From a virus (taxonomy: Duplodnaviria > Caudoviricetes), in IMG/VR virus record IMGVR_UViG_3300009509_000020, positions 559 through 64,558 of that record: 64,000 nucleotides of DNA; one strand, 5' to 3'. The notes under the pieces are model-generated. The model was not told the origin of the DNA. It did no database searches and worked only from the letters and a program-made list of their open reading frames with translations. Below, piece by piece: positions 6,450-64,000 of the stretch. Numbering within the stretch: the stretch's first letter is position 1; the number at the start of each line of letters is the position of its first letter. The position numbers and the translations under genes were made by a program.

Positions 6450-7040
6450 CTAATGTAATCCAAAAGGATTACATTCATATGTTTGTATAAAAAGATTCCC
6501 TGTCCCTCCGAGGCTTCTATGACCGGCATTCCAATCACACTTGACTTGTACTTTTATTGTAGCCATAACTAAAATATCTATACCGCTAATCTGCATCTGC
6601 TCATCTGTGATTTCCGTGGTAAGCAGAGGCAATTTTATAATACCGCGCTTCAAGAGATCTTTTGTTATTGATACCGCTATTTGGCCCTTGATAGAAGTTG
6701 TTGCATTGCCTAATTTTGATTCGGCTTTTCTTGCCCACGTTTCTGGTATTTCATATTCTGCCAAGTTGGGTATATCTGATGGGGGTATCAATCTGCCTAA
6801 CGCTGTCTTTATTCCAGATTGGCTTGCGCTCACCTCTTTGTATCTCGCAAGATTTAGCGATCTCGCATCCCCAACAGAAAAGACATAAACGCGCCTCGTC
6901 TTTATAGAAACATGACATCTGATTATATCACCATCTTCTTCATATATTCCATATTGTACAAGGTTCTTATTCAACTTCGTTTCCCCATGTATCCCATCCC
7001 TCAAATTTTTCACGTGCAAATAATTCAATGCGTCTGCCAT
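6450..7040 (-). CDS. putative PD-(D/E)XK nuclease-like protein (start uncertain)
   Basis: QISGIDILV...KVQVKCD...TGNLFIQ resembles a D...(E/Q)xK catalytic motif; AT-rich; coupled to the MT-A70 gene. Confidence 0.5.
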   Translation of the reverse strand: MADALNYLHVKNLRDGIHGETKLNKNLVQYGIYEEDGDIIRCHVSIKTRRVYVFSVGDARSLNLARYKEVSASQSGIKTALGRLIPPSDIPNLAEYEIPETWARKAESKLGNATTSIKGQIAVSITKDLLKRGIIKLPLLTTEITDEQMQISGIDILVMATIKVQVKCDWNAGHRSLGGTGNLFIQTYECNPFGLH

Positions 7041-8109
7041 GAGGATATAAGGTGTCTATTATTTTTCTAAACTCTTGCGGTTTTTCAGAATGGCGCTCTG
7101 TGCGTTCGCAAGTCACTACACTATCAAACTTTTTATCACTATCTGGCGTGCAACTTCCCCTGGTACAAATTAGTAGAAATTCATGCCGGACACTGTTGTA
7201 ATGCCCAAAGTTATGCTTGACTTTATCCCAGACAAACGAGGTTTTATACTTGAAACCCCAGGCGCGGATCACTGCAAAACATTCCTCTAGTAGGGGAGAT
7301 GTAACCCATAAAAATAGAACGGCATTATCCTCGGCCATGTTCTTGATTGGCAACTTGCATAGCTCGTCAAGACTCATGGTGGGATAGTGCCGTTCTGCAC
7401 GTCCATAGTTGTCATTGTTTATTACACCAGAGTTTCCATATTGCCACGGGGGATCGGCATAGATGACACGATATTTTCCAGTCGTTTCAAATTCTACTGG
7501 TTCTGGGCGCGTTACCTGTCGGTATGCCTCTTTTGGCTTGACGCCTTGCTCTATCAAGCCAACCATCTTTACTTGTTTTCCTTCTGGTAGCTCTGTGGCT
7601 TTGGCGGCTAGGCTCACGGCTATCTTGTCTAGCTCTACCGCCTGAGCAAGTTCTGGCGCGCCTTTGGCGAGGACTTTCTTGGCGCGTTGAATTGAATCAG
7701 ATGATACATTCAGTAGCGAGCCTGCATCGCCTTGAGAAATTACCGCAAATGCGGTAATTTTCTCCGGTCTGCCAGGCCCTTCCAAATTTGCTATCTTCGC
7801 TGCTACTATTGCCCGTTGGCTTTCGCTTAAATGTCTTCGATGCAAGTTCATACTCACCACGAAAGAAACCAGCGATCCTTGTTTTTCCCACGTCCTGAAT
7901 TGCGGGCGTGTCTCTGTTTCAATACAAGCCCTATGCCGGTTGCGCCCGTCAAGAATACTCCTATCTGGATGTAGCCAGATAGCCTCTCTAAGGCCATTGG
8001 CGGCAATATCGGCTTTAAGTTCCTCAAAGTCTTGCCCCTCCATAAGGGGAAATAACTGCGCTATTTCATTATATGGCCGGTTGATTTCCTGCTCAAGCCA
8101 GTTGTCCAT
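6967..8109 (-). CDS. ParB-N domain fused to MT-A70 family N6-adenine methyltransferase
   Basis: ILDGRNRHRAC and SMNLHRRHL (ParB-like); VIYADPPW, LFLWVT, HSEKP, IELFAR, WGNE (MT-A70). Start re-called at 8109 after AGGAG. Confidence 0.92.
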   Translation of the reverse strand: MDNWLEQEINRPYNEIAQLFPLMEGQDFEELKADIAANGLREAIWLHPDRSILDGRNRHRACIETETRPQFRTWEKQGSLVSFVVSMNLHRRHLSESQRAIVAAKIANLEGPGRPEKITAFAVISQGDAGSLLNVSSDSIQRAKKVLAKGAPELAQAVELDKIAVSLAAKATELPEGKQVKMVGLIEQGVKPKEAYRQVTRPEPVEFETTGKYRVIYADPPWQYGNSGVINNDNYGRAERHYPTMSLDELCKLPIKNMAEDNAVLFLWVTSPLLEECFAVIRAWGFKYKTSFVWDKVKHNFGHYNSVRHEFLLICTRGSCTPDSDKKFDSVVTCERTERHSEKPQEFRKIIDTLYPHGRRIELFAREKFEGWDTWGNEVE

Positions 8110-8123
8110 TTTTCTCCTCAAAC

Positions 8124-8295
8124 AAAAAGCACCGATGATCTGTCCCGGTGGCCGATGGCAATTACCCCCTAGCAATAGGTAACGACCACCGGCACAGATC
8201 GCCAGTGCTTTTTAGCTAGGGGTTTAGGCTTGCCACGGCCCGCGCTTCTTTTAATCGCGCAGCTATATTCTACCACTACTCTCCTGGATTGTCAA
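8124..8295 (-). promoter_or_regulatory. promoter plus structured A-B-A'-B' leader of the MT-A70 operon
   Basis: TTGACA(8295-8290)-17-TAGAAT; helices 8215-8235/8156-8173 and 8183-8213/8124-8154; U-tract after. Confidence 0.65.
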
Positions 8296-8310: not shown

Positions 8311-8595
8311 TTATTCGCCTTGATATGCAGCAATGGCCCTCATAATCAACTCTGCGGTTTCTCTGCCACTTTCATCAAGGGGAACAATAAAAGCCTGTCC
8401 GCTATTATCTCCAATTGAAATAGCATCAAACTCAAATAAATGAGGATACTTTTCTTGCTTTTCTATTTCATGTAGCGTTGCTGGAATTGCATTGTATCTT
8501 GCCGTGCGAATACCAAGCGTTGCTCGCTTTAGGCGTTCCAAGCTCCAAAATTGACTCATTATTATCAATCTCCTTTCTTCAAAATGCTTTGCCAT
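8311..8595 (-). CDS. hypothetical protein
   Basis: ORF in operon. Confidence 0.5.
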   Translation of the reverse strand: MAKHFEERRLIIMSQFWSLERLKRATLGIRTARYNAIPATLHEIEKQEKYPHLFEFDAISIGDNSGQAFIVPLDESGRETAELIMRAIAAYQGE

Positions 8596-9477: not shown

Positions 9478-10440
9478 TCAATTCTTGTAGAGCAAGTTGA
9501 TAACTTTGAATGACAGCCGCTCACCATTCACACTTTGTTCCATGACCGGACGAACGACAATGCCTTCGCGCTGCTTGCCGTTGGGATACAAACCTTCAGC
9601 CAAAGTTCTCAGTTCCTCGTCATTGTACTGGAAAGCAATACCGAATACTGTCTCTTTGACCATTGGAATATCAGACCGTTCGGCCCAATCTTGTACAACT
9701 AGGTAGCCGAAATAATGTCGCCCAACGATATTGTAGACACTGAACAGTCGCCCTTCGACTTTCTTGAGACCCATTGGGTTGCCTTGAATGCCTGGCCCAA
9801 CGACCTCGAATTGCAGGGCAAGTCCATCATCAAGTAGGGTTTCTAACCCGTGTTCTCTGGCGATCTTCCAGATGGCGTTGTTCGGCGTCTCTTTCAATTC
9901 CAAGTTGCGGCTACAACAGCCAAATTGTCCCTTGTATTTGTAGACCGTCGCCGAGCTTCCATCCGCCTTCTCAGTTACGTAAAATGGCAAGCCGCCCAGG
10001 GCTTCTACCAGATGGGGAACAGTCTGGAAGTTCGGCTCATCTGTCTTGGGAACGAAGGACGGGAACCAACCAAGTGCATCACCACCGATTGATAATGACA
10101 ATGGCTTTTCGTACTTAGTGACGCCTGCCTGTTCCGTAACGTCATCTCCGAGATTGCCTGAAACATGAGGCATGATCAACACCTCAGATGGCACGCCTCG
10201 CAAGCGGGCCATCCTCACGCGAAAGTTATACTTGCGCATAAACTCAAATTCTGACAGTTCAGGCAGCAGTGAATCTTGTAGGTAGACTTGGCACAAATCA
10301 CCTGCGACAAATTGTCCCTTCTGAACCGTCCCTTGCCACTTGCCCCCCTTGCCACAGATAACGATGGCCGATTCAATGCGATCTGCATCTGGAATGGGAT
10401 TTATCTCGGCGATTTTTCCCACATATACTAGACCTGACAT
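9478..10440 (-). CDS. RNA ligase, Rnl2/DRB0094 family, with N-terminal OB-like domain
   Basis: INPIPDADRIE, PKTDE, motif I TEKADGSS, CSRN, QFEVVGPGIQGN, REGIVVR, SFKVIN. Confidence 0.9.
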   Translation of the reverse strand: MSGLVYVGKIAEINPIPDADRIESAIVICGKGGKWQGTVQKGQFVAGDLCQVYLQDSLLPELSEFEFMRKYNFRVRMARLRGVPSEVLIMPHVSGNLGDDVTEQAGVTKYEKPLSLSIGGDALGWFPSFVPKTDEPNFQTVPHLVEALGGLPFYVTEKADGSSATVYKYKGQFGCCSRNLELKETPNNAIWKIAREHGLETLLDDGLALQFEVVGPGIQGNPMGLKKVEGRLFSVYNIVGRHYFGYLVVQDWAERSDIPMVKETVFGIAFQYNDEELRTLAEGLYPNGKQREGIVVRPVMEQSVNGERLSFKVINLLYKN

Positions 10441-10454
10441 ATCATTATCTCCTT

Positions 10455-10617
10455 GCATGATAGTCAGTTAAGGCAAATGGATCGTCTGGCTCCGCCCCAG
10501 ATTTTTGCCCCTACAGCAAGTCAGAGCAGGGCAACCCATGCTACCGACCATCTTCTGACTTTTTGGGTCGTGTTCCTGTCCACGACGCGATCCATTTGCC
10601 TTAACTGACTATCATGC
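10455..10617. mobile_element. 163-bp element with perfect 30-bp terminal inverted repeats (IS4-like MITE or structured ncRNA)
   Basis: 10455-10484 is the exact reverse complement of 10588-10617. The end GCATGATAGTCAGTTAAG resembles IS4-type TAATGCCGATCAGTTAAG. No clear target-site duplication. Confidence 0.55.
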
Positions 10618-15673: not shown

Positions 15674-15781
15674 GGGGCTGGTAGCTCAGGCAGGCATGAG
15701 CGCGGCCAATTTCTAGATCGTTGGCTATTATAGTGACACTAGATAAGCTGGGGTCGCTGGTTCAAATCCAGCCCAGCCCCA
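15674..15781 (+). ncRNA. tRNA-like RNA with an elongated anticodon arm
   Basis: GGGGCTGG/CCAGCCCC acceptor, TA-GCTC...GAGC D arm, GCTGG-TTCAAAT-CCAGC T arm; a ~48-nt stem-loop replaces the anticodon arm. Confidence 0.8.
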
Positions 15782-18064: not shown

Positions 18065-18720
18065 GCCGGCCCGATGTAGTGGTAGACTGGTGTAGCTATG
18101 AGGCTGCCAAGTATGCGGTTGAGCATTGGCATTATAGTAAGCGAATGCTAGCGGGCAAATATATGAGTATCGGGATATGGGAAAACAGATTGTTTATCGG
18201 GGCTATTGTATTTAGTCACGGGGCTAACAAGGCAATTGGCAAGCAATATGGTCTGTCTCTTTTTCTGGCCTGTGAATTAAGCCGCGTGGCAATGACTAAG
18301 CACGCCATATTTGTTTCACATTTGATAGCAAAATCGTTATCTATGCTAAAAAGCCAAGCAGATCGGTTACGGCTTGTCGTTTCATACGCAGACCAAAGAG
18401 AGGGACACATAGGGGCGATTTATCAGGCCAGTAATTGGATATATGTAGGGCAATCGAGTGGGAATGATAGACGTAATTGCCCATATTTGAAACCTGGCGG
18501 CGGGATTGTGCAGTGGCGCACTATGTCAAAGATATGTCAGCGGCATGGAATGTCACACACCTTACAGGCGGCTATATCGTTGGGCTATACCCCGCTTGGC
18601 TTTATGCCAAAGCACAAATACCTCTACCCTCTCGATAAGGCCATGCGCCGACAAATCGAGCCTTTGGCACAACCATATCCAAAACGCGAACATGCGGGCG
18701 AGGTGCATGATGGTGCATAA
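18061..18720 (+). CDS. mom: Mom-family (GNAT-fold) DNA adenine-modifying enzyme
   Basis: HWHYS, CELSRVA, VVSYAD...GH.GAIYQASNW.Y.G, KHKYLYPL, PYPK. Confidence 0.85.
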   Translation: MSRPDVVVDWCSYEAAKYAVEHWHYSKRMLAGKYMSIGIWENRLFIGAIVFSHGANKAIGKQYGLSLFLACELSRVAMTKHAIFVSHLIAKSLSMLKSQADRLRLVVSYADQREGHIGAIYQASNWIYVGQSSGNDRRNCPYLKPGGGIVQWRTMSKICQRHGMSHTLQAAISLGYTPLGFMPKHKYLYPLDKAMRRQIEPLAQPYPKREHAGEVHDGA

Positions 18721-18765
18721 CTGGCGACCAGTCAGCAGGCGCAGGTTCAATTCCTGCCGCCCGCT
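18694..18765 (+). tRNA. non-canonical tRNA-Gly(ACC) overlapping the mom 3' end
   Basis: GCGGGCG/CGCCCGC + U73; D stem GTGC/GCAT; anticodon stem CTGG/TCAG with loop CG-ACC-AG; 4-nt variable loop; GCAGG-TTCAATT-CCTGC; no encoded CCA. Confidence 0.8.
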
Positions 18766-57851: not shown

Positions 57852-58355
57852 GTGTATGACCTCACATATCGTGAAAACTGGCGTGCTGTTGATTCTGACA
57901 AAAACCAGCCGCCTTACTGCCCTGATGTCAGCAAAGTAGAAAGATTGGAGGGAAACGCAATGACAGACAAAGAACGCGAGTATTTTTATTATGCCGTCAG
58001 CGATGCAATGACAGAGTTCTATAAGGCTGTGAAACTTATTGCCAAGATCACGGTTGGTCGGCTTGGCTTGGTGCAGGCGGCCTATGCTCCTGAGCTATGG
58101 CTTGCTGCCCATCAGGAGACAATCATGCTGGCCTATGACCTTTCACAGCATGATTGTCTCTCGCAAAGAGAGGCGAAAATGGCGGCGCTCAGAGAGGCGG
58201 CACAATGGCTTGCAAATTATGGCGGTAGTTGGCAGCGCCGGGATCGCGGCCTTGACGAGATTGAACAGCGATTAAAACTATTGAGGCGGGAAGATAGTGG
58301 CCCTGCGGAAAATGTAAAGGAAACTGGGGAAACAGATAATGAACATCGGACTTGA
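57852..58355 (+). CDS. hypothetical protein
   Basis: ORF upstream of the ParM-like gene; real start may be 57960. Confidence 0.5.
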   Translation: MYDLTYRENWRAVDSDKNQPPYCPDVSKVERLEGNAMTDKEREYFYYAVSDAMTEFYKAVKLIAKITVGRLGLVQAAYAPELWLAAHQETIMLAYDLSQHDCLSQREAKMAALREAAQWLANYGGSWQRRDRGLDEIEQRLKLLRREDSGPAENVKETGETDNEHRT

Positions 58356-59313
58356 TGTGGGTTATTCAGCTACTAAGGCCATATCAGGGGAGCGGCGCAT
58401 AAATCTGCCGTCAATCGTCGGAACACCAGATAGGGCGAGATTTGCCTTGTCTGACTCAGACAATATGGTTCTGACTTTGCCAAGCGGCAAGGTGTATCAG
58501 GTTGGACGGGCGGCCGTCCTGCAGAGCCGATTCGTTGATAGGCAAGAGGATCGTAACTGGATTCAAAGTGAGGCTTACTATGCTCTCATGTTGGCCGCCC
58601 TCACAGAATTGACCCCCGCAACGGTTGACACCATCGTTGTCTCTGGATTGCCAGTCGCCTTCTATGGAGATAAGGATACTCTGCGTAATATACTGCTAGG
58701 AGAACACAGAGTAACCCGCGAAGGTCGCCGGGCGCAACTTTTCCGTATTACCGAGGCGCGGGTTATACCACAGCCATTCGGCACACTTCTGGCAATGGCT
58801 TTGGATAATAATGGGCGCATCAGCGAGCAGTCACTTGCTACTGGCTCAGTTGGCGTCATAGATTGCGGGGGCAAGACAACCAATTTGCTCTCTGTTCATC
58901 GGTTGGCAGAAATTAGCCGCGAAACAGCAAGCGTCAACTTGGGGGCCTGGGATGTTGTGCGGGCAGTCGGCAATTGGTTAACTGATAACTGCCCCGGCCT
59001 GGATCTGCGCGATCATCAGTTGATGGATGCTATTATTGCCCGCAGCGCGTTGTATTGCGGCGAGCCTGTTGATCTGCATGAGATAGTAGCAGAAACCTTA
59101 CAGCCAATGGCCGAACAGGTGCTTGCACAGGCAGGCCAGCTTTGGAATGGGGCGGCCGGACTGGCGGCCATCATGGTTACAGGCGGGGGGGCATTACTGT
59201 TAGGGCCACAAATCAAGGCTAGATTTCGCCATGCTCGCATCGTAGACGATCCGGTATTCGCTAATGCACTAGGCTATTGGAAGTTTGCTCAACGACTGTC
59301 TAATAATCAATGA
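58339..59313 (+). CDS. ParM/StbA-family actin-like ATPase
   Basis: IGLDVGYSATK, VSGLPV, VIPQP, VIDCGGKTTN, VTGGGA, FANALGY. Confidence 0.9.
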   Translation: MNIGLDVGYSATKAISGERRINLPSIVGTPDRARFALSDSDNMVLTLPSGKVYQVGRAAVLQSRFVDRQEDRNWIQSEAYYALMLAALTELTPATVDTIVVSGLPVAFYGDKDTLRNILLGEHRVTREGRRAQLFRITEARVIPQPFGTLLAMALDNNGRISEQSLATGSVGVIDCGGKTTNLLSVHRLAEISRETASVNLGAWDVVRAVGNWLTDNCPGLDLRDHQLMDAIIARSALYCGEPVDLHEIVAETLQPMAEQVLAQAGQLWNGAAGLAAIMVTGGGALLLGPQIKARFRHARIVDDPVFANALGYWKFAQRLSNNQ

Positions 59314-59334
59314 TAAATAGCCCCTAATAATACT

Positions 59335-59613
59335 ATGACGGCAATTTATAGTTTCTCTTTGGATGAAAAAAATGACGCGGTTGTCAAGAGATGGCTTGAT
59401 TCACTGCCCAAGCGACGGCGGTCGCGTGAAATATGTGAGATTCTTGCGGCGCATATCAATGGTCAAGTGACGCTATTAGAAATCTATCACAAACTGACGG
59501 TCATAGAACAAAAGATTGGTAATGGCATAATAACGACCAGGGTCAAAGAAGAGGCTGGGATGATAGACGAGCCGCCAGATGTTGCCGCCAATATTGACGG
59601 GTTAGGAAAATGA
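59335..59613 (+). CDS. ParR-like adaptor / RHH protein
   Basis: Directly after ParM; YSFSLD...D..V..WL..LP....S..I..IL; acidic tail. Confidence 0.65.
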   Translation: MTAIYSFSLDEKNDAVVKRWLDSLPKRRRSREICEILAAHINGQVTLLEIYHKLTVIEQKIGNGIITTRVKEEAGMIDEPPDVAANIDGLGK

Positions 59614-60707
59614 GCAGTGGGGGCGGGGGAAGATTCAGCCCATTCGGCTGGATGTTGGGTCGGATCACTGCCGACCAACCGGTTGAAGAAAAAGTAACAC
59701 ACAATATCGAAACGCAGGTTAGAATACCAAACCTGCAATCACGCTATGCGGGTATCAGTGCGGCCACCATTGCCGTGCTATTCGTGGCCGCCTGGAGTTG
59801 TCTGCCTGCTGAGTGGATCATTTTACTACCCTATATCGTTACTGGCGTATCATTGATCGCGGTATCTGCCTGGGGGGCAAGGGTCTCACATGATGATTCT
59901 GAGTTCTGGCAAATCGTCAGAACGCGCGGCCCGCTTGAGGTTTTCGCGGCCATAATCTTCACCAAGCAATTCTGGGCACTGCTACTGCCATTTGGCCTGG
60001 GCCTCGTGACGTTCAAGTTGCACGGCCTATCTGATGAGTGGTGGTCACAGAATGCCGGATACGCTTTTTGCATGGCGCTTGGAGTTGGCCCGTTTGTAAC
60101 GGGCCTCATGCGCATCTATCTCTACCCGCGTGAGACTATCGTGCGATTCGAATTGACTCCCTGGATGAGGGAACTGATGAGGGCGATCCGGCTGTATCTT
60201 GCGCCAGCCATCGAGGCCGAACTAGGCATAGATGTATCAGGCGATAGGCTGGAAAGAATCCTGGATGATTTTAGGGGTGAGATTTACGATGCACTTGGTG
60301 AGGCTGGACGATTAGACAGGCTGGCCGACCAGGCCACGTTACAACGAGAGGGTCGCGTTACTGCAAATTATCGTTTTAGATATGACGCGCTCGCATTTCT
60401 ATATATCAGCCAAGACCCCGGCATTGGCTTGGCGCGTAATAGCTGGGTTGATGCTAGACAGGCAGCTATTGAAGATGGGGCTATCGTTTTGCCTTCTGGC
60501 CTAGTTGTGGACTATACGGCCTATGTTGCTATAGTTGATACTCTGGCAGTAGCAGGAATCATTAGCCGGGCAAAACGCAAAGAACCGAAGGTGAACTTTG
60601 ACAGGCTGACACGCGAGGATATTGTTGACATGATTTTTGGCTTGACGGTGGACAAGTTGCCCAAGCCACTACAAGACCATTATTATAGCAATTCGACATA
60701 TACATAA
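59610..60707 (+). CDS. multi-pass membrane protein
   Basis: About four transmembrane segments, then a soluble domain. Confidence 0.65.
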   Translation: MSSGGGGRFSPFGWMLGRITADQPVEEKVTHNIETQVRIPNLQSRYAGISAATIAVLFVAAWSCLPAEWIILLPYIVTGVSLIAVSAWGARVSHDDSEFWQIVRTRGPLEVFAAIIFTKQFWALLLPFGLGLVTFKLHGLSDEWWSQNAGYAFCMALGVGPFVTGLMRIYLYPRETIVRFELTPWMRELMRAIRLYLAPAIEAELGIDVSGDRLERILDDFRGEIYDALGEAGRLDRLADQATLQREGRVTANYRFRYDALAFLYISQDPGIGLARNSWVDARQAAIEDGAIVLPSGLVVDYTAYVAIVDTLAVAGIISRAKRKEPKVNFDRLTREDIVDMIFGLTVDKLPKPLQDHYYSNSTYT

Positions 60708-60995
60708 TAACTTGGGTTGGGTTGGGTTGGGGCGTGTTTTTTGTGATTTCCAAGACGAACACAGGATGCTAAGTGGGGTAGGGGTATGAAAATGTTCATT
60801 AAGCTCTGGCGAATACTATTCTGGCCTAGAGTCTGGGTTTGGATTTCGGAAGCCTACTCCCCGCGCCTGAATGTGTCCAAAATTATCCGGGGGATGGGCT
60901 ATATAGAGCCTATTGTACTGATTCAGAATACGACCTGTGATGGAAAGACTATCGAGGGCTGGGTAAAGTTCGTTCATAGAAAGGGGGAGTAAAGA

Positions 60996-61550
60996 ATGAG
61001 AACGGCTCGCTGGGTCATAGCACTATTGTCGCCACTGTTGTTATCCGGGTGTGATGTCCTGGAGGCAAGAAGGCTAAATGCCGAAGCAGCGGCGTCCAGG
61101 GCAAAAGCCGCTGAAATCTCTGCGATCTACACGGGCCGCGTCGCCGAAACTGAGGCAGAAACGGCGCAAATCCTGGCAGAACAGCAGGCAGCAGAAGAAG
61201 ATCGAGAATCGCGTCTAGCCGCAGAAATTCAGCAATCGCTATTGCGTCAAGCGGAACTTGATCGGCGGGCATTGCGCCGCGCCGCCGAGTTACCGTTTTG
61301 GGCTATGATGATTTTTGTCGGAATCGGCCTGCCATTGATAGTGGTCGGGGGGCTATATGCAGTTTTCTCGTTTGGACGGGGAAGGTCTGGGGCACCACTA
61401 TATTGGTATCTGATAGCCCGCGCTCAGAGGCGCGGATTACTACCCAATCCGCCTGCCACGATAGTTGCCCTGCCCACCAGAGAACAGATAACGATAGGGA
61501 GTCAAACAGACGATAGCAACGGAGACGGGGATAACATCATACGAATATAA
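60996..61550 (+). CDS. putative lipoprotein with coiled coil and transmembrane segment
   Basis: LLSGC lipobox, Ala/Glu coil, hydrophobic segment. Confidence 0.6.
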   Translation: MRTARWVIALLSPLLLSGCDVLEARRLNAEAAASRAKAAEISAIYTGRVAETEAETAQILAEQQAAEEDRESRLAAEIQQSLLRQAELDRRALRRAAELPFWAMMIFVGIGLPLIVVGGLYAVFSFGRGRSGAPLYWYLIARAQRRGLLPNPPATIVALPTREQITIGSQTDDSNGDGDNIIRI

Positions 61551-61557
61551 AAGACAC

Positions 61558-61587
61558 AAGGCCCGCGCCAGAAACGCGGGCCTTTTT
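61558..61587 (+). terminator. intrinsic terminator
   Basis: aaggcccgcg...cgcgggcc-ttttt. Confidence 0.75.
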
Positions 61588-61636
61588 GTGTGAAAACGCC
61601 AAAGTGTGCATCAGTAAAATGTATCACATCTAAATG

Positions 61637-61773
61637 GTTAGAAACCGGTTAGATTGTTTGTCTTTGGTAAAATTACACGGCGAACTGTTTATAAAACGCT
61701 TGACAAATTTACTTTCTCGTGGTATACTAATTATAGAAAATGAGAAACAGAAACGAACCTGAACAACAGAATA
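61637..61773 (+). promoter_or_regulatory. early promoter with GTTAGA repeat and boxA-like site
   Basis: GTTAGAaaccgGTTAGA; TTGACA(61700)-17-TATACT; GAACCTGAACAACAGAATA at 61755. Confidence 0.7.
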
Positions 61774-61855
61774 ACCCAATAGACCCAACGAACTAACGGC
61801 GGGCGGAAACGCAAGAGGCCGGGCATCTAGGGGGTGAGGGCAGAACAGAAAGGGC

Positions 61856-61920
61856 GAGTCAACCGAGTAAACGGTCTCGGTTTTGAAAAGCGCGGGCAAA
61901 AAGCCCTAAGCGCGAAACTC
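61856..61920 (+). ncRNA. type III hammerhead ribozyme, U3-A8 core variant
   Basis: GAG-TC | AACCGAG/CTCGGTT | TTGAAAA | GCGC.../GCGC | GAAA-CTC. Confidence 0.72.
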
Positions 61921-61937
61921 AGAAAAGAGGAAACGAA

Positions 61938-62198
61938 ATGAACATGCAAGAAATGCTCACGACAAAAAATCTAGGGGACATTACAGACGAGGACATCAGG
62001 GCGGCGGCCTATGCGATAACATACGGCGAGTTTGCTATAGAAGTCACCGGCCGCCAGAGAGAATTGAAAAAACGCTTGCGCGAATTGGAAGCAAAAAATG
62101 CTGCTAAAAGGACAGAAAAGCGAGCTGCGCTACAAGAGAAATTACAGCGGTTAGCAAGCACTATGTTTTCCGATGAGGATGCCTATGCAGATAGGTAG
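61938..62198 (+). CDS. hypothetical coiled-coil early protein
   Basis: GAGG RBS; lies between the two hammerhead-like elements. Confidence 0.65.
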   Translation: MNMQEMLTTKNLGDITDEDIRAAAYAITYGEFAIEVTGRQRELKKRLRELEAKNAAKRTEKRAALQEKLQRLASTMFSDEDAYADR

Positions 62199-62239
62199 TA
62201 ACAACATAACAGCGAACCTGCCGGGGTGAGAAGCCTGGC

Positions 62240-62305
62240 GAGTCGGGGCACACGGCCCCCTGATGAGAGCCTGAATGGCAGGCTCAGGCCACAAGGGCGA
62301 AACTC
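62240..62305 (+). ncRNA. type III hammerhead-like ribozyme with atypical stem II
   Basis: GAG-TC | GGGGC/GCCCC | CTGATGA | branched stem II | C-GAAA-CTC. Confidence 0.62.
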
Positions 62306-62333
62306 AAAGGCAAGAAAGACGAAGGAGCTTGAA

Positions 62334-62513
62334 ATGAGTAAGGTTGTGTTTTACCAGGAACAAACGTGTGGCTGTGGCTGTGGCCGCAAGGGCAAATCAT
62401 TCGAGCTTGTAACTAAGGGAACCGCCCAACAATTCGTGTTTCCAGATGGGCATGTCATCACGATCCCATCCCCCAGTCTCCCACAGTACAGTGTCGAATC
62501 CACAGAGGAATAA
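62334..62513 (+). CDS. small protein with CGCGC motif
   Basis: AAGGAG RBS; start re-called at MSKVV. Confidence 0.55.
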   Translation: MSKVVFYQEQTCGCGCGRKGKSFELVTKGTAQQFVFPDGHVITIPSPSLPQYSVESTEE

Positions 62514-62695
62514 ACTGAATATCTCGCAGGGCGTGCTCGCGCCCTGCCGCTCGCCAGCCCCAACCGCGTTACAAAAAAGCCAAACGGCTGGGCATGTCGG
62601 AGGAATCGCGGTAGCCCCTCCGAGGCGAGCAGGAGCGCGTGAGCGCAGATGGCTAATCAAGATGTGGTCTTTAATACAAGAAAGGAGATGATAGA

Positions 62696-63034
62696 ATGAG
62701 TAAATATGCTATTACCATGTGCATTACCGTAAGTACCGTCATTCACCAAGTATCTGGTTCTCAAGATGAACTCCGAGAGATCCTGGAAAAACTTGCCAGA
62801 GAAGAAGGCAATCTCGCCGTAACATGGCTCGGAGAGGAGATGACAATAGCCGACATTGACATCACTGGTATCTATGATGGCAATTGTGACAGAATAAAAT
62901 GCAATGAGAATAATCATCGGTGGGAGTGGGCCGGTGATGATTGGGAGTGTCAGGTATGTGGCGTGTCAGCAGCAGCAGTCTTTTTGCCACTATTAAAGGA
63001 GACGGAAACAAATGCAAAAGATGTTGAGGGCTAA
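62696..63034 (+). CDS. hypothetical protein
   Basis: AAGGAG RBS; C....H.W......C..C. Confidence 0.55.
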   Translation: MSKYAITMCITVSTVIHQVSGSQDELREILEKLAREEGNLAVTWLGEEMTIADIDITGIYDGNCDRIKCNENNHRWEWAGDDWECQVCGVSAAAVFLPLLKETETNAKDVEG

Positions 63035-63203
63035 TAGTATAGGTGACTTGGTAGAATTAGTGAACGGATACTTGGAAGGCGGCTGGCATGTCAAAGTTGT
63101 CGGAGCAGAGTCACTTGAGCAAGTAGCCTCACCTCTTGCCAACAATAAAACCCCAGCGGGCACTACATTTTTGCACTTTTGGTGGGCAGTGATCGAGGTC
63201 TAA
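63012..63203 (+). CDS. hypothetical protein
   Basis: L...VN.YL..GW pattern. Confidence 0.5.
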   Translation: MQKMLRANSIGDLVELVNGYLEGGWHVKVVGAESLEQVASPLANNKTPAGTTFLHFWWAVIEV

Positions 63204-63215
63204 CCATAGAAGGGA

Positions 63216-63545
63216 ATGAAGATGAACGATAACCGAATAACCACCGTTGAAGCCGCACGGCTGTGCGGTCTCACACGTCAGGCCATCACGGCCCGAATTA
63301 AGCGGGACTTTTACCAGTCTGCGGCCCGGCTGGGCCGGGACTGGACACTGGACAGGACTGAGGTTGAGGCTTCTGCCAAAAATCCCCCCAGAGTAGGCCG
63401 CAAGCGAAAGCCACCCCAAGAACCGAGTGAGGTATTCTGTGTAGATTGCGGCTGGACAGGCAACCCAGATGCACTGGTGATCGGATTCCCTGGCAGCAGT
63501 GATATTGAGAATATTGACCCCGATGAAGAAGGGAGAAATGAATAA
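63216..63545 (+). CDS. excisionase-like HTH protein with AT-hook
   Basis: ITTVEAARLCGLTRQAI...I......A.RLGRDW.L...EV...VGRKRK. Confidence 0.7.
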   Translation: MKMNDNRITTVEAARLCGLTRQAITARIKRDFYQSAARLGRDWTLDRTEVEASAKNPPRVGRKRKPPQEPSEVFCVDCGWTGNPDALVIGFPGSSDIENIDPDEEGRNE

Positions 63546-64000
63546 AATGAAATAAGATGAACTACTTAACTTGGCAAGAAACCTTGCCCTTGCACTAGCC
63601 GATGAAGTGACATTCGCTGGCGCTGACGCCGCCGAACGGTCGTTACAGGTATTGACTCAGGCCCGCGAAAAGCTGGGCTTGGCAAAAGAGTTTGACGAGA
63701 TTGAATCCTTGAGTATGCAGGGTACATAAAGGCCAAGAAAGGTAAAAATAGAACGACAGAACTTTACGAAGTTGGACAAACGGTACTGATTATAGACCAA
63801 CGTCCTCCTGCTAAGGGACAAATCATCAAAGTTTCAACATGGGCACAAGTAACAGGGCTTGCTAGTGATGATTCAGACTGTTACCTTATTCGGGCCGCAA
63901 CGTGGGCGTGCGATGCCTGGATAGGCGGGGTTTTTATTCGGCCGGTATCAGATTCGGCATAGTATTACCAAAAAGAGGTGGGGGGCATTTAGCCCCCCAC

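Follow-up and report, generated by a model that had tools for sequence, protein, structure and literature searches.

The window analysed here is the whole 64,000-nucleotide (nt) stretch covering bases 559-64558 of IMG/VR virus record IMGVR_UViG_3300009509_000020, a 64,558-base-pair (bp) record with direct terminal repeats that is rated complete. On its + strand, 2-3 kilobases (kb) from the right end of this uncultivated phage, two hammerhead-like ribozyme elements bracket an open reading frame (ORF) of 86 amino acids (aa), the first in a transcription unit of small ORFs. An intrinsic-terminator-like hairpin with a T run (61558-61584, +; 10-12 pairs, 8 of them G-C, then TTTGTGTG) marks the end of the upstream unit. 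The unit itself is headed by a sigma-70-type promoter, TTGACA-17-TATACT with a TG extension (61700-61728, +), which matches the consensus at 11 of 12 positions. The transcript then comprises an A/C-rich 5′ leader of about 125 nt (61735-61860, +; its start predicted from the promoter), element 1 (61856-61920, +), the 86-aa orphan ORF (61926-62198, +, including the ribosome-binding site (RBS) AGAGGA; ATG at 61938), element 2 (62240-62305, +), a 59-aa orphan ORF (62321-62513, +, including the RBS AAGGAG; ATG at 62334), a 182-nt spacer, and three further small ORFs, one of which has a weak helix-turn-helix signal. The start codon of the 86-aa ORF lies 17 nt past element 1, and that of the 59-aa ORF 28 nt past element 2, which itself begins 41 nt past the stop codon of the 86-aa ORF. 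After the promoter, the + strand has no other terminator-like site before 63914. The small ORFs of the operon have no Pfam match over cut-off and no PHROG, and neither the 86-aa nor the 59-aa product has a usable look-alike in the ESM Atlas. The first-pass annotation, a model's reading of the letters, had called this unit an early operon. The promoter and the small-ORF unit are present, and the unit may be early, to judge solely by its position, promoter and small orphan ORFs.

Element 1 is a type III hammerhead by sequence, with its predicted cut at 61860/61861. It consists of GAGUC (61856-61860), AACCGAG-UAAACGGU-CUCGGUU, the core UUGAAAA (61883-89), GCGC-GGGC-AAAAA-GCCC-UAA-GCGC, and GAA-ACUC (GAA at 61914-16, ACTC at 61917-20). 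Stem I (61861-67 / 61876-82) has seven pairs, AACCGAG/CTCGGTT, with an A-U pair adjoining the core. Stem II (61890-61913) comprises 4+4 pairs with a 3-nt TAA bulge and contains the G10.1-C11.1 pair. The minimum free energy (MFE) fold of the 65-mer is exactly the hammerhead structure, at -23.0 kcal/mol. Element 1 deviates from the CUGANGA core solely at positions 3 and 8, which have changed jointly from C3-G8 to U3-A8 with the pair kept, and the first-pass annotation had rightly read the core TTGAAAA as carrying this compensatory change. The same covariation is reported for several natural hammerheads (Perreault 2011, PMC3088659), and hammerheads covarying at positions 3 and 8 were active in vitro (Przybilski & Hammann 2007, as cited in Perreault 2011). 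Element 1 is thus well supported as a hammerhead and is probably a self-cleaver, perhaps a slower one than a ribozyme with a C3-G8 core.

Element 2 is likewise of type III and has the canonical core CUGAUGA, with its predicted cut at 62244/62245. It consists of GAGUC (GAGTC, 62240-44), GGGGC-ACACG-GCCCC, the core (CTGATGA, 62260-66), an irregular stem II region of 32 nt (62267-98), and GAA-ACUC (GAAACTC, 62299-62305). Stem I, GGGGC/GCCCC, has five pairs with a G-C pair adjoining the core. At the base of stem II, G62267 and C62298 are pairable, and the next two positions mismatch. The folding z-score is -1.45. The first-pass annotation had noted the canonical CTGATGA and a branched or extended stem II, a fair description of a region whose MFE fold has two hairpins. 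The Rfam model Hammerhead_3 (RF00008) aligns to the full length of element 2 with a score of 29.6 bits and an expectation value (E) of 5e-4 for a search of 1.1 kb and 0.03 for the window. Element 2 may be a decayed copy, a form that can switch, or a hammerhead in which an extra hairpin has been inserted beside G12. As a hammerhead it is plausible, its chances of cleaving itself appear about even, and its function would depend on whether the core tolerates the extra hairpin. A two-hairpin stem II of this kind was not found in the passages of Perreault 2011 consulted, supplementary alignments aside. Inside the 59-aa ORF (62382-62395, +), GGCCGCAAGGGCAA is a near copy (12/14) of GGCCACAAGGGCGA, which comprises the second hairpin of element 2 and the following GA of its GAAA and lies 95 nt upstream (repeat families D1 and D2). 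The likeness may be due to chance, or the segment may be left over from a further ribozyme copy.

The two elements agree in position, strand and parts of their sequence. Both have a stem III of GAGU/ACUC (4 pairs, open), A15.1-U16.1, and a GUC triplet with C17 (61858-60 and 62242-44), and in both GAAA is intact and a closed stem I stands without mispairs at the core. Weak stems III are common in hammerheads (Perreault 2011, PMC3088659). The first-pass annotation had seen both as hammerhead-like from their GAGTC start, and the type III form with a GAGUC/GAAACUC stem III on the + strand agrees with this. Its cuts after 61860 and 62244 also coincide with the predicted ones, which are 384 nt apart, and the RBS and the 86-aa ORF lie between them as it had stated. 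The 8 letters preceding both cuts are identical (GGCGAGTC), as are the 10 letters at both 3′ ends (GCGAAACTCA), and the 3′ halves share 84% identity across 19 nt. These likenesses indicate that elements 1 and 2 are paralogous copies. The shared pre-cut and 3′-end motifs co-occur nowhere else in the window. In addition, GGGGTGAG precedes both ribozymes (61824-61831 and 62223-62230, +) at slightly different distances. Its UGAG could pair with the ACUC strand of stem III in place of GAGU, and an alternative inactive pairing is therefore possible in both copies.

Descriptor searches and shuffled sequences give a measure of chance. A strict type III descriptor (core C3-G8 or U3-A8, GAA, non-G at position 17, contiguous stems) was run on both strands of the 64 kb, and element 1 is its only match. 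Stems of the grade of element 1 (at least 7/4/4 pairs) occur in none of 100 dinucleotide-preserving shuffles, and a loose descriptor (stems of at least 4/3/3) matches in 25 of the 100. When the descriptor is adapted to element 2 (CTGATGA, stem I of at least 5 pairs, stem III of at least 4, any stem II), it has a match in 10 of 100 shuffles, with a mean of 0.1. As a control, 63 IMG/VR loci with the letters GAGTC..TTGAAAA..CGAAACTC at the right spacings were inspected, and a stem I of at least 4 pairs together with a stem II of at least 2 was present in none of them.

Public metagenomes contain natural variants of the locus, and variant phages with the leader occur in sediment and soil metagenomes. 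Parts of 61500-63600 occur in 20 public runs of 6 studies, all DNA, and the contigs of 4 studies were compared. In contigs of 3 studies (X2 and X11 at 61860; X8 from 61847), GAGTC is followed by a different stem I with the arms GCCAGG/CCTGGC, and then by TTGAA-T-AAGCG, in which the U3 core and the start of stem II are unchanged. A stem I that is fully replaced yet paired is as expected of a functional stem I. In the close strain X3, element 2 is retained without listed changes.

Several observations weigh against reading the pair as two active hammerheads. Within an 81-nt context, element 1 has a rival fold of similar energy in which the 3′ strand of stem I is paired with an upstream GCGAG. 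Element 1 goes unreported by every Rfam hammerhead family, also when only 101 nt are searched at E<=10. The contigs with the variant stem I, and an X11 contig at 61887 that has the window's stem I, hold one extra U in the core (TTGAATAAG), and the core of element 1 is therefore polymorphic. The extra U is either a second nucleotide at position 7 or an insertion after A6, and hammerheads with an insertion after A6 are described as active but slow (Perreault 2011, PMC3088659). For element 2, the MFE fold (-27.8 kcal/mol) has the hairpins 62267-85 and 62288-98 instead of a stem II. Because this best fold is two separate hairpins, G10.1 and C11.1 take other partners, and folds that pair G10.1-C11.1 reach only -16.7 or -14.7 kcal/mol, 11-13 kcal/mol dearer. 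When element 2 is aligned on element 1, positions 10.2/11.2 are A-G and 10.3/11.3 are G-G. Its Rfam score lies 19 bits below the gathering threshold of RF00008 (48.5), and non-standard pairs are marked in stem II. By eye, no Watson-Crick complementarity of at least 4 nt is seen between loops I and II of either element. The closest relative, the IMG/VR record L042, has no ribozyme at the homologous place and runs from the leader directly into a different first ORF. The covariance-model search in related phages that the first-pass annotation had proposed found Hammerhead_3 at E<=1 in none of the 5 related IMG/VR records. At gathering thresholds, Rfam reports neither element. This silence is weak evidence, since Hammerhead_3 at E<=0.1 also missed the regular-looking elements of the IMG/VR loci L007, L009 (twice) and L028, and is thus insensitive to phage forms.

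The arrangement is already known in kind, since the reports of multiple hammerheads around single phage genes and of natural U3-A8 cores date from 2011. In prophages, several hammerheads flank single genes, and for three such arrangements the predicted cleavage was observed in vitro, for one of them also in E. coli (Perreault 2011, PMC3088659). According to de la Pena 2017 (PMC6155905), hammerheads flank small non-conserved phage ORFs and their role is an open question. The function of phage hammerheads is likewise treated as open in the text of a 2019 review, and later papers describe bacterial self-cleaving ribozymes as enriched near each other and near phage genes. The elements described here resemble the clustered phage and prophage hammerheads of these reports (PMC3088659, PMC6155905) in lying close together on one strand and bracketing small non-conserved ORFs, in this case the 86-aa ORF on the + strand of a complete phage record. 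Natural U3-A8 covariation and a proposed role in processing polycistronic RNA are further points in common. Unlike those, the present pair lies in a phage without a close relative among the phage records searched.

Individual systems show parts of the same layout. In halovirus HF2, the first early ORF is preceded at 13 nt by a hammerhead variant, and the 5′ end of its transcript maps at or near the cut site (PMC3088659). This HHphage form of haloviruses HF1/HF2 is comparable in placing a hammerhead a few nt upstream of the first ORF of a polycistronic early transcript (Perreault 2011). It differs in having insertions next to C3 and stem I and a very high Mg2+ need, whereas element 1 has a compensatory base-pair change instead. 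The L009 pair from IMG/VR (7379-7432 and 8426-8479, +) also has a GAGUC...GAAACUC stem III in both copies and flanks small ORFs. However, its members are 1047 nt apart in an unrelated phage, have the canonical CUGAUGA, short regular stems and one additional U ahead of stem II, and are hammerhead-like by sequence. L007 and L028 hold single elements similar to those of L009. Retrozymes and viroid-like RNAs (PMC7761336, PMC6765202) are, as reviewed there, likewise bounded by two direct hammerhead repeats whose ends re-form one ribozyme. Their units are non-coding or RNA-replicating and need a reverse transcriptase or RNA polymerases, whereas the unit here is a 384-nt piece of phage messenger RNA (mRNA) with an ORF.

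The reading favoured here, and one that appears reasonably likely from the sequence, is that the RNA cleaves itself during transcription, which takes off the leader and parts the cistrons. What the sequences show is the anatomy of the elements, its improbability by chance, the promoter context and the variation of stem I in relatives; cleavage and any effect on expression are inferred. Each element would fold during transcription and cut itself after C17, at 61860 and 62244. The first cut would detach the leader of about 125 nt as a separate RNA, and the second would part cistron 1 from cistron 2. Each downstream mRNA would then begin with a 5′-OH and a folded ribozyme body, and each upstream piece would have a 2′,3′-cyclic phosphate end. 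In synthetic insulators of the RiboJ type, a type III hammerhead between promoter or leader and RBS removes the variable leader and stays as a 5′ hairpin. By likeness to these, translation and decay of each cistron could become independent of upstream sequence, and such a layout would suit genes that are shuffled between contexts. RiboJ-type insulators are engineered, whereas the arrangement here is natural, and insulation is suggested by the likeness of layout. Of the consequences of self-processing offered by the first-pass annotation, stabilisation by a 5′-OH fits the layout, because each ribozyme would remain at the 5′ end of the downstream cistron. In many Gram-negative bacteria, 5′-OH ends evade the 5′-monophosphate-dependent attack of ribonuclease (RNase) E, whereas in Bacillus they are a target of RNase J1. 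Whether the RNA gains or loses stability therefore depends on the host.

Other explanations of the locus place the activity elsewhere or deny it. It is doubtful, though a real possibility, that the repeats act as DNA homologies for the gain, loss or swap of small-gene cassettes, with RNA activity secondary or lost. The X2 and X8 contigs join 61852 to 62237, with 8 letters fitting both sides, and thereby leave out exactly the 384 bases between the predicted cuts. Further contig joints connect 61920 to 62240, 62267 or 62272 to 62512 or 62513, and 62308 to 62513, and the operon ORFs have no relative in the 5 related records. This suggests exchangeable cassettes with the ribozymes as shared joints, without showing it. 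Support for these joints comes from flanks of 28-32 letters, matched with a likeness threshold of 80; all carry the mark 'between: not known' and belong to a kind that is often unreliable. The body of the 86-aa ORF is without cover in X2, X8 and X11, and that of the 59-aa ORF in X2 and X8, and these gaps were not used as evidence. Exchange at the DNA level would also leave the intact catalytic core, the compensatory U3-A8 and the replaced but still paired stem I unexplained. Rather unlikely is the case in which only element 1 cuts and element 2 is a decayed or regulated copy, so that the leader would be removed, no 384-nt RNA would form, and cistrons 1 and 2 would stay joined. The two-hairpin fold of element 2, which beats an unbranched stem II by 11 kcal/mol, the non-standard stem II pairs flagged by Rfam and the modest z-score would fit such a copy. 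However, all core letters of element 2 and its stems I and III are intact, X3 keeps it, and hammerheads with a stem II of two pairs or even one are active (Perreault 2011, PMC3088659).

The circular mRNA put forward in the first-pass annotation finds no specific support and is improbable. In such a scheme, the 3′ end of the 384-nt RNA (..GGCGAGUC>p) would pair with GAAACUC of element 1 and re-form the hammerhead, and the circle would be sealed by the reverse reaction or by host RtcB. The identical 8 nt before the cuts mean that the junction would reproduce element 1 exactly, and retrozyme and viroid monomers share this geometry according to the reviews cited above, but a duplication explains the identical ends equally well. 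For the published phage and prophage arrangements, circular or spliced products were considered and could not be detected (Perreault 2011, PMC3088659). The circle would have stops in all three frames (7, 6 and 3), and therefore no endless reading frame. Ends with 5′-OH and 2′,3′-cyclic phosphate suit RtcB, which was sought in the phage genome and not found, whereas Rnl-type ligases need 5′-P and 3′-OH. The ligase of the phage is Rnl-type and ATP-dependent (PF09414), and the ORFs scanned around its gene have no Pfam match. Most improbable of all is chance, with both elements being ordinary intercistronic hairpins without catalytic capacity. Both score under the Rfam threshold, and the loose descriptor finds matches in a quarter of the shuffles, but the locus has two matches on the same strand, 384 nt from each other and alike in stem III, none of the 100 shuffles equals element 1, and none of the 63 pattern-matched loci has the stems. 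Very improbable, too, is a combined case in which the 384-nt stretch is an RNA-defined gene cassette, its excised RNA, with ends that re-form hammerhead 1, closed by host RtcB or by the ribozyme into a translatable circle, and the same unit gained and lost as DNA, in keeping with the contigs of two studies that lack precisely this stretch. If this were true, the ribozymes would be processing sites, expression insulators and cassette-exchange joints at once.

The locus is a compact test case for what hammerheads do in phages. It has a strong promoter, a leader common with a ribozyme-free relative, and one ribozyme directly before each of two cistrons. It also has natural core alleles (U3-A8, with or without the extra U) and a copy with a hairpin in the place of stem II. 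Such a locus could show whether ribozymes insulate or stabilise phage early mRNAs, and whether the core tolerates a hairpin next to G12. Fresh interest attaches to the odd stem II of element 2, to the core alleles, and to a hint that ribozymes mark the borders of exchangeable cassettes. If the metagenome contig borders hold, the ribozymes would be linked to the mosaic exchange of small early genes.

Five IMG/VR records share the partition protein of the phage at 52-85% identity. In the closest, L042, the promoter and the start of the leader are kept, with 73% identity over 178 nt (L042:11387-11556 against window 61637-61807). The A/C-rich leader start (61740-61810, ..GAACAACAGAATAACCC..) is conserved at L042 11490-11556, and everything downstream differs. 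It contains A-R-N-like triplets, of the type bound by Hfq. A tblastx comparison of 61000-64000 with the 5 related records matches the promoter and leader of L042 only and gives no relative of the operon ORFs. Given their absence from these records, the ribozymes and the ORFs beside them are not conserved across the phage group and lie in a hypervariable region. A loosened descriptor gave 3 weak matches in the 5 records, one of them inside the partition gene, and none was convincing. The 86-aa ORF and ORFs of 184 aa and 365 aa have no relative in IMG/VR.

Pattern searches extend to larger collections. The pattern GAGTC..CTGATGA..CGAAACTC has 41 matches at 40 loci in IMG/VR. A stem I of 6-7 pairs is present in only 4 of the matches (L007, L009 twice, and L028), none of which is related to the phage. 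The elements of L007, L009 and L028 all have an extra base absent from elements 1 and 2. A MAFFT alignment of these other phage hammerheads was unsuited to building a model, with stem I of L007 misaligned and the extra base throughout. A 17-mer from the leader occurs at 3 IMG/VR loci, namely the L042 contig and two unrelated AT-rich DNAs. An 18-mer from the leader occurs at 23 JGI metagenome loci, none of which has blastn similarity to window 58001-64000. The 3′ half of element 1 has no locus in IMG/VR and 9 in GTDB genomes, none with GAGTC plus a stem I upstream. Relatives carrying element 1 were thus not found in IMG/VR, JGI or GTDB.

The remainder of the genome encodes recognised phage products, namely a large terminase, portal, head protease/major head protein, DNA methylases, a partition protein and an Rnl-type RNA ligase. 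The terminase is less than 40% identical to any of 50,697 deposited phages, and blastn of window 61500-62700 against these phage records gave no match. The RNA ligase (9478-10455, -) matches PF09414 at 7e-20 with the PHA02142 OB-fold domain, and phrog_968 at 1.5e-39. In a scan of the ORFs around its gene, 5 had no Pfam family, and no kinase/phosphatase or end-healing enzyme was recognised beside the ligase. Of 3 ORFs further off in the same scan, one is a C-5 DNA methylase match and one is DUF5131. The genome has two transfer RNA (tRNA) genes (15675-15780 and 18694-18765), and the ligase may have a role in tRNA repair rather than on ribozyme products. The partition protein (58339-59310, +) matches phrog_691 at 2.7e-51, and a ParB-like/methyltransferase fusion is encoded at 6967-8172 (-). 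Together, these two hint at possible maintenance of the phage as a plasmid-like prophage.

The spacer before the third ORF (62514-62695, +) occupies the place that the ribozymes take before ORFs 1 and 2. It is G+C-rich and structured, with a folding energy of -72.9 kcal/mol and a z-score of -3.07, and only 1 of 200 shuffles is as good. It has no Rfam match at E<=10, and nothing ribozyme-like is found at E<=10 across 62480-64000. The structure comprises a long hairpin (62526-47), a helix GCTCGCC/GGCGAGC around two hairpins, and a GNRA-capped hairpin. Metagenome variant contigs break within the spacer at 62547-52 and 62621-29. The two enclosed hairpins have the loops ACCGCG and CGCGGT, which could kiss.

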